A stretch of DNA of 60,663 nucleotides from a bacterium. GTDB taxonomy: Bacteria; Patescibacteriota; Patescibacteriia; Patescibacteriales; VMTK01. The translations under genes and the position numbers were made by a program. The stretch spans positions 1-60,663 of the forward strand of contig JAUYAT010000008.1 in NCBI GenBank assembly GCA_030693295.1, written 5' to 3'. Below, one piece after another: positions 1,877-52,862 of this stretch (positions are counted from its first letter, which is position 1; every line of letters starts with the position of its first letter). The notes beneath the pieces were generated by a model. That model worked only from the letters and a program-made list of their open reading frames with translations. It was not told the origin of the DNA and searched no databases.

Positions 1877-2319
1877 GTCATTCCCAGCTTGACTGGGAAT
1901 CCAGGAGTTAGCGGTACTTATGTCATATCCAGAAATAAATCTCGCCAAGCAGGATTTTCCTTTTCTATTAATTCTATTTTCCATTGCCGATTCCACTTTT
2001 TCAACTGTTTTTCTCTTTGGATAGCATATTGAATATAACCATAACTTTCATAATACACTAATCTGGTTACATTATATTTTGCTGTAAAACTCTTTGGATT
2101 CTCTTTTAATTTATGTTGAAAACTGCGGCTAAATAAATTATTAGTAACTCCGATGTAGATTGTCCCATTTCTTTTACTGGCCATAATATACACATAATAA
2201 CATTTTTCTTGTTTCATATTAATTTCTTACTATAATAATTATTTTAAAATCCACATTCATACCGCTTCCTCCTGGATTCCCCACCCGCTTTCGCGAGTGC
2301 TAAAGGCCGCGGGAATGAC
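1877..2319. mobile_element. GIY-YIG gene enclosed by inverted P1-family arms (candidate autonomous palindromic element)
   Basis: The left arm ends GGGAATCCAGGAGTTAGCGGTA (to 1916). The right arm starts TACCGCTTCCTCCTGGATTCCC (from 2260). That is a 22-nt inverted repeat with 2 mismatches. The outer ends are GTCATTCCC (1877) and GGGAATGAC (2319). The same two arms abut without an ORF at 4029-4166. Confidence 0.5.
1918..2217 (-). CDS. GIY-YIG nuclease family protein (small UPF0213/YhbQ-like)
   Basis: 99 aa. N-terminal YYVYIMASKRNGTIYIGVTNNL (GIY...YIG motifs), then REKQLKKWNR. Confidence 0.75.
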   Translation of the reverse strand: MKQEKCYYVYIMASKRNGTIYIGVTNNLFSRSFQHKLKENPKSFTAKYNVTRLVYYESYGYIQYAIQREKQLKKWNRQWKIELIEKENPAWRDLFLDMT

Positions 2320-4028: not shown

Positions 4029-4166
4029 GTCATTCCCGCCCGCTTCGCCAAAGCTTCAGCGAGGCGAGCGAAAGCGGGAATCCAGGAGTTAGCGCACAGA
4101 ATCTGGATTCCCCACCCGCTTTCGCGAGTGCTAAAGGCCGGGAATGACAGAATTGAATTATTCAAC
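4029..4166. repeat. Composite P1-family palindromic element without an ORF
   Basis: GTCATTCCCGCCCGCTTCGCCAAAGCTTCAGCGAGGCGAGCGAAAGCGGGAATCCAGGAGTTAGCG-CACAGAAT-CTGGATTCCCCACCCGCTTTCGCGAGTGCTAAAGGCCGGGAATGACAGAATTGAATTATTCAAC. The two arms that flank the GIY-YIG gene at 1877-2319 are separated here by only 8 nt. Confidence 0.8.
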
Positions 4167-8643: not shown

Positions 8644-8770
8644 AGTTTAAAAGTTTAAAAAATAAAATTAAAAATAATAATTATTCTGCTTTTATTATAC
8701 CATAAATAGCTGTCACTGAAAAAATCAACGATATTATCAAAAAACCTTTTAAGTTATTTTTAAATACTTT

Positions 8771-9003
8771 CCACATTAAAGTTAATAATTATTCCGCTTT
8801 TATTATAACACTTTTTAAATAAAATATAAAAACAGGCAGTCTGTTTGCCTGGGCTAAAAACTTTATCCACCCCGTTAGAAGCAGATCGCCCAGAGGCGAT
8901 CGTAGCCGTGCCTTCAGCAATGCGGCTTCTAACGGGGTCCGCAATTTAGGGCTTGACACAGATTGATAAACTGCTATACTTAAAATGTAGTTACGATGAA
9001 AAG
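8771..9003. repeat. Segmental duplicate copy 1 (carries a 72-nt hairpin insertion)
   Basis: ...ATTAAAGTTAATAATTATTCCGCTTTTATTATAACACTTTTTAAATAAAATATAAAAACAGGCAGTCTGTTTGCCTGGGCTAAAAACTTTATCC...GCTTGACA..TGCTATACTTAAAATGTA matches 9193-9355 apart from the insertion. Confidence 0.8.
8869..8938. mobile_element. ORF-less hairpin element of family P2 (ACCCCGTTAGAAGC...GCTTCTAACGGGGT), MITE-like
   Basis: 14-nt perfect terminal inverted repeats. The paralogous copy at 9283-9292 reads TTTATCCGCA uninterrupted, whereas here TTTATCC[element]CCGCA. Confidence 0.65.
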
Positions 9004-9150
9004 CCCCCTATGAGATTCTGTTCTCATGGGGTTCTTTTCTTTTAGATATACCCTGAATCTCTTGTAATCCAACTTCCAGCCCATTTCTTTGATGGCTAAA
9101 TATAGATTTTGTCCGTCAATAAACGCGTAATTGTTTAAATCCTGTTTCAT
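8980..9150 (-). pseudogene. Truncated NYN-domain gene copy (56-codon remnant)
   Basis: MKQDLNNYAFIDGQNLYLAIKEMGWKLDYKRFRVYLKEK matches the first ~38 aa of 9359..9874. It then diverges into a hairpin (CCCCATGAGAACAGAATCTCATAGGGGG) and stops. Confidence 0.6.
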
Positions 9151-9192
9151 AATTCTATTTACATTCAGATTAAATTATTTTTTAACATTTTT

Positions 9193-9355
9193 CGCATTAA
9201 AGTTAAAAATTATTCTGCTTTTATTATAACACTTTTTAAATAAAATATAAAAACAGGCAGTTTGTTTGCCTGGGCTAAAAATTTTATCCGCATTTTGGCG
9301 CTTGACATTGTTTTTGATTTTGCTATACTTATAATGTATCTATTACGAAACGTAC
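9193..9355. repeat. Segmental duplicate copy 2 (no insertion)
   Basis: See 8771-9003. Shares the module ending GCTTGACA-N16-TATACT. Confidence 0.8.
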
Positions 9356-9358
9356 TGC

Positions 9359-9874
9359 TTAAGGTTCTGTCCTTAGGTGGTGCGTTTTTTTATATTCTAA
9401 TCTTCCCCGCAACTCATTCATAAACTGTATTCTTTCTCTGGCTGTGTGTGTAAGTAAACTTGAACAAAAATTTTTATCTGGACTTAAAACAACTTCTAAT
9501 TTTTTATTTTCATACAAATATTCAACAAGAGAATAGAAATCTCCGTCATTAGATACAACAACAGCTTTGTTATATTCACTCATTTCAATGACGGCTCGCA
9601 AAACCAAATCAGCATCTATATTACCTTTAATTTTGCCATTTAAATCTGGAATTGTCGGTTTAAACTTAAGAATAAATCCTGCTTCCTGCAAACAATCATA
9701 TAATCCTTGATTAAGAGACACAAACCCAATAAACATATAGGCCTTGCTCACCCCATACTTTTCCTTAAGATAAATACGAAAACGGGCATAGTCCAATTTC
9801 CAACCCAAAATCTGAATACCCAGATTCAGATTTTGGCTATCTATAAACGCAAAATTATTTTCTTTTGAAATCAT
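9359..9874 (-). CDS. NYN-domain (LabA/DUF88-like) putative RNase
   Basis: ORF-track 9359..9943; the likely start is MISKENNFAFIDSQNLNLG at 9874. Followed by ...VVVSNDGDFYSLVEYL. Confidence 0.6.
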   Translation of the reverse strand: MISKENNFAFIDSQNLNLGIQILGWKLDYARFRIYLKEKYGVSKAYMFIGFVSLNQGLYDCLQEAGFILKFKPTIPDLNGKIKGNIDADLVLRAVIEMSEYNKAVVVSNDGDFYSLVEYLYENKKLEVVLSPDKNFCSSLLTHTARERIQFMNELRGRLEYKKTHHLRTEP

Positions 9875-9997
9875 ATTTTTATTAATTCGCCGCCAGCGCT
9901 TTTTGAACTTTCGGCGGGAAATTCCAAACCTGCGGAAAACCACTGAATATCCATGCAGTGATTAATAAAAATATAACTGTAATTTTTATTGATTTTC

Positions 9998-10276
9998 TCA
10001 TATTTTGTCTGCGGCCAGCCCCGTTAGAGAAAGGAAGCGTTTCAAACGATTTTTAAGATAGCGCTTGCCGGGACCGGATTTTAAATACCTTTCTCTCGCA
10101 AAAGCATCGCTTTCGTTTTTACAAGCTTCATAATAAATTAATTCAAAAGGACCTCTGCATTTTGTGGCTATAACCTCACTATTATTGTGTTGTTTGAAAC
10201 GCTTCCGTAAATCATTAGTACATCCGGTATACCATCTATCATCCTTTTTGCTTTGTATTACATAAGTATAAAACAT
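9998..10276 (-). CDS. GIY-YIG nuclease family protein
   Basis: 92 aa: MFYTYVIQSKKDDRWYTGCTNDLRKRFKQHN...RERYLKSGPGKRYLK. Confidence 0.75.
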   Translation of the reverse strand: MFYTYVIQSKKDDRWYTGCTNDLRKRFKQHNNSEVIATKCRGPFELIYYEACKNESDAFARERYLKSGPGKRYLKNRLKRFLSLTGLAADKI

Positions 10277-10294
10277 AGTTTTTCTCTAACGGGG
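10019..10294. mobile_element. GIY-YIG gene bounded by P2-family terminal inverted repeats (candidate autonomous element)
   Basis: CCCCGTTAGAGAAA at 10019-10032 and TTTCTCTAACGGGG at 10281-10294 form a perfect 14-nt inverted repeat. CCAG sits directly outside both ends (10015-10018 and 10295-10298). Confidence 0.55.
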
Positions 10295-10347
10295 CCAGCC
10301 GCTAAAAATCCAGCCCGCTGTCATTGAAAAAATCAGCGACATTATTA

Positions 10348-10414
10348 ACCCCGTTAGAAATATGCCTCTTTTTGATGATTTTGCCATAGTTAGATGTTTA
10401 TTTTCTAACGGGGT
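10348..10414. mobile_element. ORF-less P2-family hairpin element
   Basis: ACCCCGTTAGAAA...TTTCTAACGGGGT, 67 nt, 54 nt from the GIY-YIG-containing copy. Confidence 0.6.
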
Positions 10415-10452
10415 AAAATTATTTTTTAACATTTTTCCCGTTAAAGTTAAAA

Positions 10453-11067
10453 TTATTCAAGGCTGAATTTTATCAGCGCTTTTTTAACCTTTGCGTCGCT
10501 AACTGCAAAACCGGGCGAAAATTCAACTTCTTCTTGATAATCAATGTCTTTAAAGTAAGCCAATTGCTCCCGAAAAATTCTTTCGTTAAACTCATTTTTA
10601 AAAATATCCTTGGATCTTGCGACTATTTTTTTTATAGAATGATATTTATTGATTATAAAATACAAATCAACATAATCTTTCCATTTTGCCCGCCTGCCCA
10701 AAGCGTAAGCTTTCATCGCCGCCAATGTCAACAAATCCGGCATTCTTAAAGTTTTTTCAAAATGCTTTGAAAATTCAATTTTAAACGGGTAATGAAAAAA
10801 AGTGAATTGCACCTTATTCACAAAGAAAGTGAACTGCCCGGCCTCGTCTTTATATACTTTGCCGATCTTATAGCCGCTTTTTATTATCAGCTTCCTGATC
10901 TTGCCGTTATTAAAATCCCTGTTGGAAAACAAATCAAAATCAATTGACCGCCTATGGCCGATCTGCAAAGCGATGGCGGTTCCGCCGACTAAACCAAAAT
11001 CTTTAATAAATTTTTTCACCAGCGGCAATAATTCAGCTTGTTCTTTTGTTAATACTTCTTGGCGCAT
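10453..11067 (-). CDS. Nucleotidyltransferase, AbiEii/AbiGii toxin family-like
   Basis: Likely start MRQEVLTKEQ at 11067. FGLVGGTAIALQIGHRRSIDFDLFS is the family's N-terminal NTase motif. Confidence 0.65.
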   Translation of the reverse strand: MRQEVLTKEQAELLPLVKKFIKDFGLVGGTAIALQIGHRRSIDFDLFSNRDFNNGKIRKLIIKSGYKIGKVYKDEAGQFTFFVNKVQFTFFHYPFKIEFSKHFEKTLRMPDLLTLAAMKAYALGRRAKWKDYVDLYFIINKYHSIKKIVARSKDIFKNEFNERIFREQLAYFKDIDYQEEVEFSPGFAVSDAKVKKALIKFSLE

Positions 11068-11323
11068 ACTTATTAAAATAAAGAGTAAAAAAATGTTTTG
11101 TTTTTTCAATATAATTCTGCCTGCCGATTTCAGACGGTTTTGATTTGGCGCGGAAAATTTTCGCGGTTTTTTTCATTCCCAAAATTTTAATCATTTCCTG
11201 CACGTCGTCCCAATCGCCGTAATTTAAAACATGCTCCACGATTGATTCTTCGGAGAGCTTGTCCAAATTTTTTACGTACCAAATCAAATACGGCCTTTTT
11301 TTTATGAATTCATGGATGGTCAT
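11033..11323 (-). CDS. Small upstream partner of the AbiEii-like NTase (putative antitoxin)
   Basis: 96 aa. Its 3' end overlaps the NTase gene by 35 nt, which suggests translational coupling. No motif recognised. Confidence 0.4.
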   Translation of the reverse strand: MTIHEFIKKRPYLIWYVKNLDKLSEESIVEHVLNYGDWDDVQEMIKILGMKKTAKIFRAKSKPSEIGRQNYIEKTKHFFTLYFNKYAPRSINKRTS

Positions 11324-18663: not shown

Positions 18664-18761
18664 ACCCCAGTTAAATAAAGCCGCTGATGAAGTTGGTGGT
18701 TAAAGATAAGTCGCAGTTGGTGGTCTAAAGCCACCAACAAGCGACACCTATTTAACGGGGT
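18664..18761. mobile_element. P2-related hairpin element (ACCCCAGTTAAATA...TATTTAACGGGGT)
   Basis: 12-bp terminal stem with one bulge. The interior hairpin is GTCGCAGTTGGTGG-tctaaag-CCACCAACAAGCGAC. Lies 42 nt upstream of tRNA-Val. Confidence 0.5.
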
Positions 18762-44724: not shown

Positions 44725-44758
44725 ACCCTGTTAGATAATTCATCATATCTAATAGGGT
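44725..44758. mobile_element. Miniature P2-related hairpin (ACCCTGTTAGATA-N8-TATCTAATAGGGT)
   Basis: 13-nt arms with one mismatch. The terminal motif resembles ACCCCGTTAGA. Confidence 0.4.
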
Positions 44759-52690: not shown

Positions 52691-52862
52691 GTCATTCCCA
52701 ACTTGATTGGGAATCCAGGCGAGAGCCATAGGAATATGTTTATTAGTTAAAGGTAAGTGAAAATTGATAATTTTAATCTGCTATATATATTTTTGCCATT
52801 CACCCCTGGATTCCCGCTTTCGCTCGCCTCGCTGAAGCTTCGGCGAAGCGGGCGGGAATGAC
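52691..52862. repeat. P1-family palindromic element with a 85-nt AT-rich centre
   Basis: The left arm GTCATTCCCAACTTGATTGGGAATCCAGG ends at 52719. The right arm CCTGGATTCCCGCTTTCGCTCGCCTCGCTGAAGCTTCGGCGAAGCGGGCGGGAATGAC starts at 52805. Confidence 0.8.

Follow-up and report, generated by a model that had tools for sequence, protein, structure and literature searches.

The GIY-YIG gene and its ends

The 60,663-nt stretch of DNA analysed here (the window) carries on its minus strand a gene for a small GIY-YIG nuclease, GIY#2, which is enclosed by inverted repeats and bordered on both sides by a direct repeat. The initial annotation had taken this unit for a mobile element with the nuclease as its only encoded protein, accompanied by short derivatives without an open reading frame (ORF). 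The observation is confirmed, and its interpretation is supported by comparison with homologous loci. We put the probability at roughly 0.6 that positions 10014-10299 are one copy of a widespread mobile element of ~275 bp, which would move by a nuclease-driven mechanism acting on a folded strand. The features of this copy are listed below (strand is given for ORFs; MITE, miniature inverted-repeat transposable element). Numbers with the prefix L denote comparison loci or contigs.

9998-10276, minus strand: GIY-YIG nuclease ORF, 92 aa, PF01541 profile match
10014-10019: left flanking direct repeat GCCAGC, candidate target-site duplication; length ambiguous, 4 to 6 bp
10020-10032: terminal arm CCCGTTAGAGAAA (helix 1), minus-strand 3' arm, codes for the C-terminal L-S-L-T-G
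10033-10047: internal helix 2, 3' strand, minus-strand codons R-L-K-R-F-L; adjoins the terminal arm
10192-10206: internal helix 2, 5' strand, minus-strand codons L-R-K-R-F-K, residues 23-28
10281-10293: terminal arm TTTCTCTAACGGG (helix 1), minus-strand 5' arm, 4 nt upstream of the ATG
10286-10432, minus strand: interrupted host small ORF (...LIFSMTAGWIFSGWP), target of both MITE-2 and the GIY element, recognised from its translation
10294-10299: right flanking direct repeat GCCAGC, from sequence reading and empty-site comparison

Direct reading of the sequence showed a perfect 14-nt inverted repeat, CCCCGTTAGAGAAA at 10019-10032 and TTTCTCTAACGGGG at 10281-10294, and the ORF between these arms matched the Pfam GIY-YIG domain (PF01541) with E = 2.1e-17 and 63.6 bits (cut-off 22.6). 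No other gene is present between the repeats, and both the repeat and the nuclease as sole encoded protein thus stand as first described. The start codon ATG (10276-10274) lies 4 nt inward of the right arm, and the final codons span the left arm before the stop at 9998-10000. In the family the protein normally has 86 aa and ends in ...RFLSLTG; the 92-aa ORF of the window has 6 added codons from the flank, since the element has no stop codon of its own and this copy reads 6 codons into the flanking DNA. Among other strains of the source organism, one further contig was found, with the arrangement unchanged.

The sequence CCAG abuts both ends of the repeat, as had been reported; measured outward from CCCG/CGGG, the invariant core, the flanking direct repeat has 6 bp (GCCAGC at 10014-10019 and 10294-10299). 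The alternative of a 22-nt inverted repeat was right in that a repeat search does lengthen the arms to 22 nt with 91% complementarity, but the added outer part does not belong to the element and is instead a near-palindromic target, GCGGCTGGCCGC.

The same ends bound homologous genes in many phyla

A species-level scan (one genome per species) gave at least 325 loci, 80 of which were kept for analysis. They span Patescibacteria, Omnitrophota, Elusimicrobiota, Planctomycetota, Nitrospirota, Desulfobacterota, Clostridia, Bdellovibrionales and others. The sequence N-CCCGTTAGAGA-N was found 1-14 nt 5' of the ATG, together with its complement at the gene end, in 78 of the 80 gene copies, so that the inverted repeat is indeed tied to GIY-YIG genes elsewhere. 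The complementary 3' arm consists of the codons L-S-L-T-G. Since these encode the conserved C-terminus (F)LSLTG, the reading of the C-terminal codons through the left repeat, which had been noted for the window copy, is not incidental. In some gene calls that extend upstream, the 5' arm itself is translated, and the predicted proteins contain 'NPVRE' or 'TPLE'.

In an alignment of 71 arm pairs, the 11 core pairs of helix 1 are essentially invariant and are paired in 70-71 of the 71 sequences. The bordering pairs co-vary: one of them is CG in 31, UA in 30, AU in 2 and GC in 2 sequences, and the other (alignment columns 18 and 35) is UA in 34, CG in 22 and AU in 13, with none unpaired. The covariation score of helix 1 was 0.169, compared with 0.087 for shuffled alignments (0 of 500 shuffles reached the observed score), and sliding the partners against each other gave at most 0.063. 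The bordering positions of the 3' arm fall on the wobble bases of the Leu and Gly codons. The third positions of the S, L and T codons between them are 100% identical in 76 sequences; third positions elsewhere (codons 1-74) have a mean identity of 0.57, with none reaching 0.97. The invariant wobble bases and the co-varying borders therefore show that the arm is constrained as a nucleotide sequence and that the two arms are kept complementary.

Other origins of the repeat were considered and rejected. Chance or a generic terminator was ruled out, as no T-run follows the stems, the motif is enriched in the window and it is conserved throughout the family; an assembly artefact was ruled out by the recurrence of the architecture in 80 independent assemblies. 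GTTAGAG and CTCTAAC resemble the core sites of attC in integron cassettes, for which the pattern RYYYAAC...GTTRRRY at the cassette 3' end was tested, but the polarity here is reversed, with GTTRRR...YYYAAC placed around an ORF or a miniature. Among the Rfam 15 covariance models there was no family match; only wcaG was reported (E = 0.79), well under its gathering score and outside the element.

A second helix within the coding sequence

In the window, the ORF contains a further perfect inverted repeat of 15 nt, 10033-10047 / 10192-10206 (helix 2), which pairs the LRKRF codons (residues 23-27) with the LKRF codons (78-81). RNAalifold, applied with RNA energy parameters to 76 full-length elements, recovered both helix 1 and helix 2. 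In helix 2, 98.1% of cells are paired, both-side changes occur in 8 of its 11 pairs, and the covariation score is 0.328, compared with 0.153 after shuffling (reached by 0 of 500 shuffles). At the level of the alignment, the predicted folding potential is thus shown to be kept by compensatory substitutions.

On the 3' strand, the gap between helix 1 and helix 2 is a single nucleotide, and one strand can therefore form a stem of ~25 bp. In the strand folded in this way, the first 22 codons lie in a bulge and the remaining gene forms the loop. G-U pairs are rare (~2% of helix 2 cells, and 2 of 71 at the helix 1 border); their scarcity points, short of proof, to pairing at the DNA level.

The encoded protein is a single GIY-YIG domain related to UPF0213 and Slx1

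The 86-aa protein consists of a single domain. Its homologues number 3675 at E <= 1e-5; the best matches have 70-92% identity and in most cases 86 aa, and ...KNRLKRFLSLTG is the ending of most homologues examined. In the family alignment, Y3, Y5, G18, R26, H30 and E62 are invariant, and Y16 is more than 90% conserved; the catalytic-type residues of the GIY-YIG superfamily (two Tyr, Arg, His, Glu) are thereby present, and the model agrees with its beta-beta-alpha-beta-alpha fold. AlphaFold2 predicted a GIY-YIG fold (pLDDT, the predicted local distance difference test, 92.8) with E-E-H-E-H-H topology and a long basic C-terminal helix. The nearest solved relative is UPF0213 BH0048 (1ZG2; phmmer E = 4e-7, Foldseek rank 1), and the Foldseek matches of the model comprise 1ZG2, Slx1, I-TevI and UvrC. 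The protein thus models as an Slx1/UPF0213-like GIY-YIG domain.

NCBIfam has neither a specific model nor a transposase model for this protein, and the score with TIGR01453 was 16.9 bits against a cut-off of 56. In a search of the window ORFs with Pfam, no transposase was found in the element or in the surroundings of the window copy, the GIY-YIG gene being the only ORF of the element, and no Y1_Tnp domain was detected within the element. No close relative of the protein was present in plasmid records, and viral contigs contained one distant relative only. A study of rRNA insertions in the candidate phyla radiation described GIY-YIG ORFs in insertions other than introns (PMC11270868), and these may be the same elements. 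In another paper, GIY-YIG genes were listed among the transfers out of Patescibacteria.

ORF-less elements with the same ends

The initial annotation had pointed to four further hairpins in the window, two of them with the termini of the GIY element and two diverged:

8869-8938: MITE-1, ORF-less, termini ACCCCGTTAGAAGC / GCTTCTAACGGGGT, inverted repeat; fold z = -6.5
10348-10414: MITE-2, ORF-less, termini of the GIY element, inverted repeat; fold z = -4.2; within the interrupted small ORF
18664-18761: diverged 98-nt hairpin ACCCCAGTTAAAT...ATTTAACGGGGT, flanks (C)TTTAC / (G)TTTAC; fold z = -5.2
44725-44758: diverged short hairpin ACCCTGTTAGATAAT...ATATCTAATAGGGT; fold z = -3.4; weak family membership

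The z-scores refer to the element folded as a single strand and compared with shuffled controls. Together with the repeat search, they agree with the description of 8869-8938 and 10348-10414 as ORF-less elements with shared termini. The diverged pair are real inverted repeats with 1-2 differences in the motif. The hairpin at 18664-18761 has the TTTAC direct repeat that is typical of the family, and elements of its CCYGTTAAAT type are also present in L009 and L081; for 44725-44758 the proposed relationship is doubtful. The 10-mer CCCCGTTAGA occurs 6 times exactly in the window and 10 times with at most one mismatch, compared with 2.5 expected, and 0 of 100 shuffles reached 10.

Such miniatures are abundant elsewhere. 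Within 838 kb surrounding GIY genes, there are about two dozen ORF-less units of 45-185 bp with family ends, and no gene class other than GIY-YIG was seen between family-type ends in the same 838 kb. A pattern scan of metagenome contigs found at least 131 miniatures on at least 120 contigs (loci L089-L208). Miniatures with GTTAGAG ends keep recognisable pieces of both the 5' and the 3' end of the GIY gene, and because both end pieces are retained they are internal deletions of it. Among the matches listed, the length is a multiple of three in 84 of 131 miniatures (p = 6e-13), and 38 of 106 lie inside a frame that is open for at least 30 codons on each side; these in-frame copies translate as ...[TN]P[LV][ER]...[LS][TN]G.... 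The lengths fit a net insertion of the element plus 6 nt combined with selection for in-frame copies.

Filled and empty sites, and direct repeats at the insertion point

Comparisons of filled with empty sites were possible for GIY elements (window, L083 and L084) and for miniatures (window and L013). In the window, L083 and L084-87, the GIY elements each split a small ORF with the pattern ...AWIFSGWPQ(I/V)W.... Intact homologues of this ORF are present in L082 (938-1035), L083 (92-198) and L084 (5428-5534), each with a single G[CT]TGGC, whereas the occupied sites have GCTGGC on both sides. An intact homologue is also found in the window itself (9882-10001). Among the empty sites is one that corresponds to the window's own target. 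Similarly, MITE-1 is missing from the paralogous repeat at 9232-9338, MITE-2 is missing from the paralogous sequence at 8709-8794, where the junction is not clean, and the miniature of L013 is missing from the orthologous gene in L015. Copies from different genomes are 87-92% identical in unrelated flanks, and in L014 two copies share 99% identity over 273 nt and their flanks 58%.

An exact 5-bp direct repeat was found at 45% of 128 miniatures (among the matches listed) and at 29% of 77 GIY elements, compared with 6% of cross-locus controls. The repeat is shifted by one base, and in 78 of 79 cases that base is the complement of the final base of the repeat. The consensus is T-T-N-A-Y, with TTCAT (19), TTTAC (18) and TTGAC (7) as the commonest sequences. 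Applied to the window, this rule gives CTGGC plus G, which appears as a 6-bp repeat. Of the 4-bp duplication proposed at first, the duplication itself stands, but its length has to be changed to 5 bp, with one additional base that complements its last base. A simple duplication of 4 or 6 bp had been partly positive in a first test, in which the window scored 6, and was given up when the 128 miniatures (among the matches listed) showed the 5 + 1 pattern. An extended inverted repeat, or inverted flank duplication (TTYAC...GTRAA), was also dropped, as it was found in 5% of cases against 8% of cross-locus controls; one pair, L059 compared with L022, resembles an inverted flank duplication.

Together, the filled and empty sites and the direct repeats bear out the reading of these units as insertions. 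As judged from sequence comparison, a discrete unit is shown to be inserted in many unrelated contexts and phyla, with short TTNAY-biased duplications and abundant ORF-less derivatives, and to have spread widely by horizontal transfer.

In some loci, copies abut each other. L082 (440-890) has a tandem array in which three 48-bp miniatures are directly followed by a GIY element, with 6-nt spacers (CGGG-GYCAAC-CCCG); abutted copies are also found in L034, L132 and L199, and neighbours in tandem arrays are exactly 6 nt apart. The array in L082 suggests either repeated insertion into one duplicated target or local tandem amplification.

Position of the elements relative to host genes

In 78 loci, the GIY elements are co-oriented with the neighbouring genes. 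In 24 of the 78 loci, the ATG right after CGGG opens a host ORF of at least 60 codons, and in 45 such an ORF starts within 12 nt; in 15 loci an upstream ORF ends on the TAG of the element inside CCCGTTAG. The commonest class is ATGA[AG]T-CCCG...CGGG-ATGA[AG], in which the duplication reproduces an overlapping stop/start junction, both host genes are intact and the nuclease ORF ends at a TGA overlapping the host ATG. We attribute this pattern mainly to the survival of harmless, translationally coupled insertions, to which a real preference for TTNAY targets may add.

In the window, all neighbours of the element are on the minus strand and follow, in the order of transcription, as an AbiEii-family gene, the small hydrophobic ORF carrying both MITE-2 and the GIY element, its intact paralogue and a NYN-domain gene. 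The ATG of the intact paralogue (9882-10001) overlaps the stop codon of the GIY gene (ATGA). The small ORF belongs to a family of hydrophobic ORFs of ~39 aa (...[IF][TA]AWIFSG[WF]PQ[IV]W...PP...) which precede NYN or DUF3800 genes and are a recurrent target of GIY elements.

Several other targets recur. In L013, L015 and L076, the GIY element lies exactly where the stop and start codons of an AbiE-like gene pair overlap. A position upstream of gap, the glyceraldehyde-3-phosphate dehydrogenase gene, is occupied in four loci of Patescibacteria (L018 32-500, L042 5840-6320, L068 5830-6320 and L026 2310-2790). Here the first ~12 codons of gap (M..KVAINGFGS, then PR and a stop from the arm) are repeated on the upstream side of the element, and a promoter-like spacer of 30-45 nt is present on the downstream side; the 5' copies are identical in L018 and L042 and differ in L026.

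Copies are also found exactly at the prepilin cleavage motif G/FTLIE of type IV pilin-like genes (L005 5970-6300; L014 3368-3700 and 5979-6300), as are miniatures in L099, L113, L154, L169, L170 and L206. At these sites the GIY ORF runs on in frame (...SLTG/FTLIE...), and the 5' arm plus flank reads GFTPLE, so that prepilin peptidase could in principle free both the mature pilin and the nuclease. Pilin genes were rejected as the main target, since they hold only 3 of 78 GIY elements and 6 of 120 miniatures (among the matches listed).

Comparison with known systems

The closest described system is that of the Ssn nucleases with their NTS/SRM hairpins (Chenal et al., Nat Commun 2025, PMC11893778). 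Ssn proteins are single-domain GIY-YIG proteins that cut single-stranded DNA beside a cognate hairpin present in hundreds of dispersed copies; the gene is often flanked by the repeat, and cleavage also works with a stem formed from two separate oligonucleotides. The authors remark on the likeness to insertion sequences and RAYT/REP, and past mobility of the gene-plus-repeat unit is treated there as speculation only (PMC11893778).

Both systems have a single-domain GIY-YIG protein of ~90 aa, a cognate repeat on both sides of the gene and many repeat copies without an ORF. In contrast to the self-contained 20-50-nt hairpins of Ssn, each flank here supplies half of one long-range stem enclosing the gene; the motif of the element, CCCGTTAGAG, is unrelated, and its 3' arm and the whole of helix 2 are coding. 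Unlike PMC11893778, the present analysis documents duplications, empty sites, deletion derivatives and in-frame miniatures. The protein is nearer to UPF0213/Slx1 and is 35% identical to an Ssn-like protein encoded in the same window, GIY#1. GIY#1, unlike GIY#2, has no match to UPF0213 BH0048, and GIY#2 lacks the NPxWxDL-type tail of GIY#1; these indirect signs suggest that GIY#2 may fall outside the Ssn clade cd10448.

On one side of the GIY#1 gene (1918-2217, minus strand) lies GTCATTCCCAGCTTGACTGGGAATCCAGGAG, and on the other its partner CTCCTGGATTCCC...GGGAATGACAAAGG (region 1860-2335). The flanks are ATTCCC-N9/29-GGGAAT hairpins of the Neisseria dRS3/NTS type, with further copies at 755-775, 4107-4145 and 52694-52714, and GIY#1 appears to be a canonical Ssn-type nuclease accompanied by its repeat in the genome of a candidate phylum. 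The published SRM pattern (HGTCWY...RNCYNB) had 0 matches in the window, GIY#1 included; it narrowly misses the GIY#1 repeats.

REPIN-RAYT and IS200/IS605 elements resemble the family in having a small gene between inverted palindromic repeats, non-autonomous hairpin doublets mobilised in trans, a presumed folded single-stranded DNA and short motifs (TTAC in IS608, TTNAY here). However, they use a Y1 HUH transposase with a covalent intermediate, have subterminal hairpins and make no target duplication, whereas the present family has a GIY-YIG hydrolase, a terminal stem and a frequent 5-bp duplication. Rickettsia palindromic elements and Neisseria Correia elements are likewise short inverted repeats that fold into hairpins and occur both between genes and in frame within them. 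For the former, the classical literature has no cognate autonomous element, in contrast to the full-length GIY-YIG partner with the same ends found here; Correia-type MITEs are attributed to DDE transposases.

With phage T4 Seg/Mob and I-TevI, the family shares a selfish GIY-YIG gene that lies between host genes, is co-oriented with them and is transcribed by the host. Those proteins differ in having more than 200 aa with a DNA-binding domain of their own, their spread is confined to homologous sites, and they have no terminal inverted repeats, target duplication or miniature derivatives. Placement among free-standing homing endonucleases was rejected in view of the single 86-aa domain, the TIGR01453 score below its cut-off and the copies in many unrelated contexts. 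Slx1 and UPF0213 (YhbQ, BH0048) are closest in sequence and fold, and Slx1 cuts branched and stem-loop DNA in a structure-specific manner; however, Slx1 needs Slx4 and has a RING domain, and UPF0213 is without a described function or associated repeats. Compared with terminal-inverted-repeat transposons, the family has ends that are shared by full-length and miniature copies, as well as duplications and empty sites, but not a known (DDE-type) transposase. To our knowledge, none of the catalogued insertion-sequence families uses a GIY-YIG nuclease, and in the literature searched we found no description of bacterial GIY-YIG elements bounded by inverted repeats.

Proposed mechanism and alternative explanations

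By analogy with the Ssn nucleases and the structure-specific Slx1, we infer that the GIY-YIG nuclease itself moves the element. When the DNA becomes single-stranded, the arms of the element would pair; the nuclease would recognise this stem and cut at its base, beside TTNAY, and host polymerase and ligase would then complete copying or insertion at another TTNAY site. The one-base complementary offset could reflect pairing or fill-in at the end of the stem. Miniatures, which appear trans-dependent, would be mobilised in trans by the nuclease. Copies would survive in harmless places, expressed by coupling to a host gene; those between co-oriented genes often recreate the downstream start codon or supply the upstream stop codon, and miniatures are found in frame within genes. 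The wider proposal, that these units are a new class of prokaryotic transposable elements built on an 86-residue structure-specific nuclease and a folded single-stranded intermediate whose stem partly encodes the nuclease, is tentative, and we give it somewhat less than an even chance.

Several observations weigh against mobility driven by the nuclease. GIY-YIG enzymes hydrolyse DNA, and we know of none that joins strands; the 86-residue protein therefore cannot finish transposition alone, and the joining steps proposed above are purely inferred. Among the matches listed and in the stretches examined, a family GIY gene is present on only 1 of the 120 contigs that bear miniatures. Exact direct repeats are found in only 29-45% of copies and are absent or decayed in about half. 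Covariation cannot distinguish pairing in single-stranded DNA from pairing in mRNA. The 5' duplications at gap (L018, L042, L068, L026) are not explained by simple cut-and-paste or insertion with a 5-bp duplication. Finally, the identity between the two L014 copies runs 12 nt into the upstream flank, and both are in paralogous pilin genes, which is as compatible with recombination or homing as with transposition.

Two alternatives are serious rivals, since joining of DNA is not known for any GIY-YIG enzyme. One is that an unlinked enzyme, for example a DDE transposase or a Y1/HUH transposase like those of RAYT or IS200/IS605, mobilises the elements, and that the GIY-YIG gene is cargo riding within one size class of the elements. 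A 5-bp duplication is typical of DDE transposases, this reading would account for the rarity of GIY genes near miniatures (1 of 120 contigs among the matches listed), and in L083 (2063-4849) a large serine recombinase and an ORF of 224 aa that weakly matches Y1_Tnp are located ~1-2 kb from the GIY element. This pattern is not seen in the window, where no transposase is near the element. Moreover, 78 of 80 GIY genes are precisely bounded, no other gene class was seen between such ends in the 838 kb around GIY genes, and the arm within the C-terminal codons together with the helix within the ORF point to a long co-evolution of the gene with its ends; we therefore regard a cargo role as unlikely. 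The other rival is that the nuclease cuts a conserved host sequence and that the element is copied by repair from an occupied allele or paralogue, as for free-standing GIY-YIG homing endonucleases of phages, with targets such as TTNAY-containing gene junctions, the G/FTLIE sites of pilins or the 5' end of gap. The repeated occupation of the AWIFSGWPQ small ORF (window, L083, L084-87), the AbiE junction (L013, L015, L076), gap (L018, L042, L068, L026) and pilin genes (L005, L014) agrees with such homing, as does the identity of the L014 copies that reaches into the flank. Homing, however, makes no direct repeats, whereas the copies occupy hundreds of unrelated contexts with short copy-specific repeats, and the 86-aa protein lacks a DNA-binding domain for a long target. 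It is unlikely too, and we rank it slightly behind a cargo role.

Two other explanations would dispense with present-day movement or place the pairing in RNA. A domesticated Ssn-like system, in which the host uses the nuclease, for instance to restrict incoming single-stranded DNA in natural transformation as in Neisseria, and in which the repeats are now immobile, has a precedent in Ssn itself and in the Ssn-like gene with ATTCCC-N9-GGGAAT hairpins in the same window; Patescibacteria are reportedly naturally competent. We consider it improbable, as proteins that are 70-87% identical are spread over distant phyla, genomes contain several copies (including a pair 99% identical) and tandem arrays, and the in-frame invasions of genes look selfish. 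Alternatively, helices in the mRNA might hide the ribosome-binding region, leaving translation to upstream coupling, or might stabilise or process the transcript. The 5' arm 1-14 nt upstream of the ATG, the co-oriented elements abutting host ORFs and the recovery of both helices with RNA energy parameters would suit this idea. It is nevertheless very improbable as the main explanation, given the rarity of G-U pairs at co-varying positions, the ORF-less miniatures that keep the ends with no gene to regulate, and the absence of a match among Rfam families; a role in RNA can coexist with mobility.

Movement by the nuclease is thus the reading that we prefer, and the family supplies genomic evidence for a mobile gene-plus-repeat unit of the kind that was only speculated upon in the Ssn work (PMC11893778), in a GIY-YIG lineage and with an architecture that both differ from Ssn. 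If the nuclease does mobilise the element, it would be a minimal transposition system of ~275 bp, the smallest autonomous DNA element known in bacteria, and would offer tools another programmable, structure-guided nuclease for single-stranded DNA. The family may account for many small genes annotated as 'GIY-YIG nuclease family protein' and for otherwise unexplained repeats in the genomes of Patescibacteria and other uncultured phyla; the reported cross-phylum transfers of GIY-YIG genes find a concrete explanation in it. It also illustrates how a selfish element can be concealed by recreating start codons, donating stop codons and keeping the frame.

Genes next to the element cluster

Directly upstream of the element cluster, the window contains an AbiEii-family nucleotidyltransferase toxin gene (10453-11109) with a weak DUF6922 partner (11033-11323). 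The NYN region of the window is tandemly duplicated and comprises the complete gene (9359-9874), a shortened copy (8980-9150) and a repeat of 120 nt (8749-8868 / 9170-9289); NYN genes also adjoin GIY elements in L083 and L084-L087. In both copies of the NYN region, a plus-strand promoter close to the consensus (TTGACA-16-TATACT with TG) precedes a terminator (8953-9031 and 9302-9388). These promoters predict short antisense RNAs against the 3' end of the NYN gene, and the gene and the putative antisense RNA are possibly a toxin-antitoxin-like pair.

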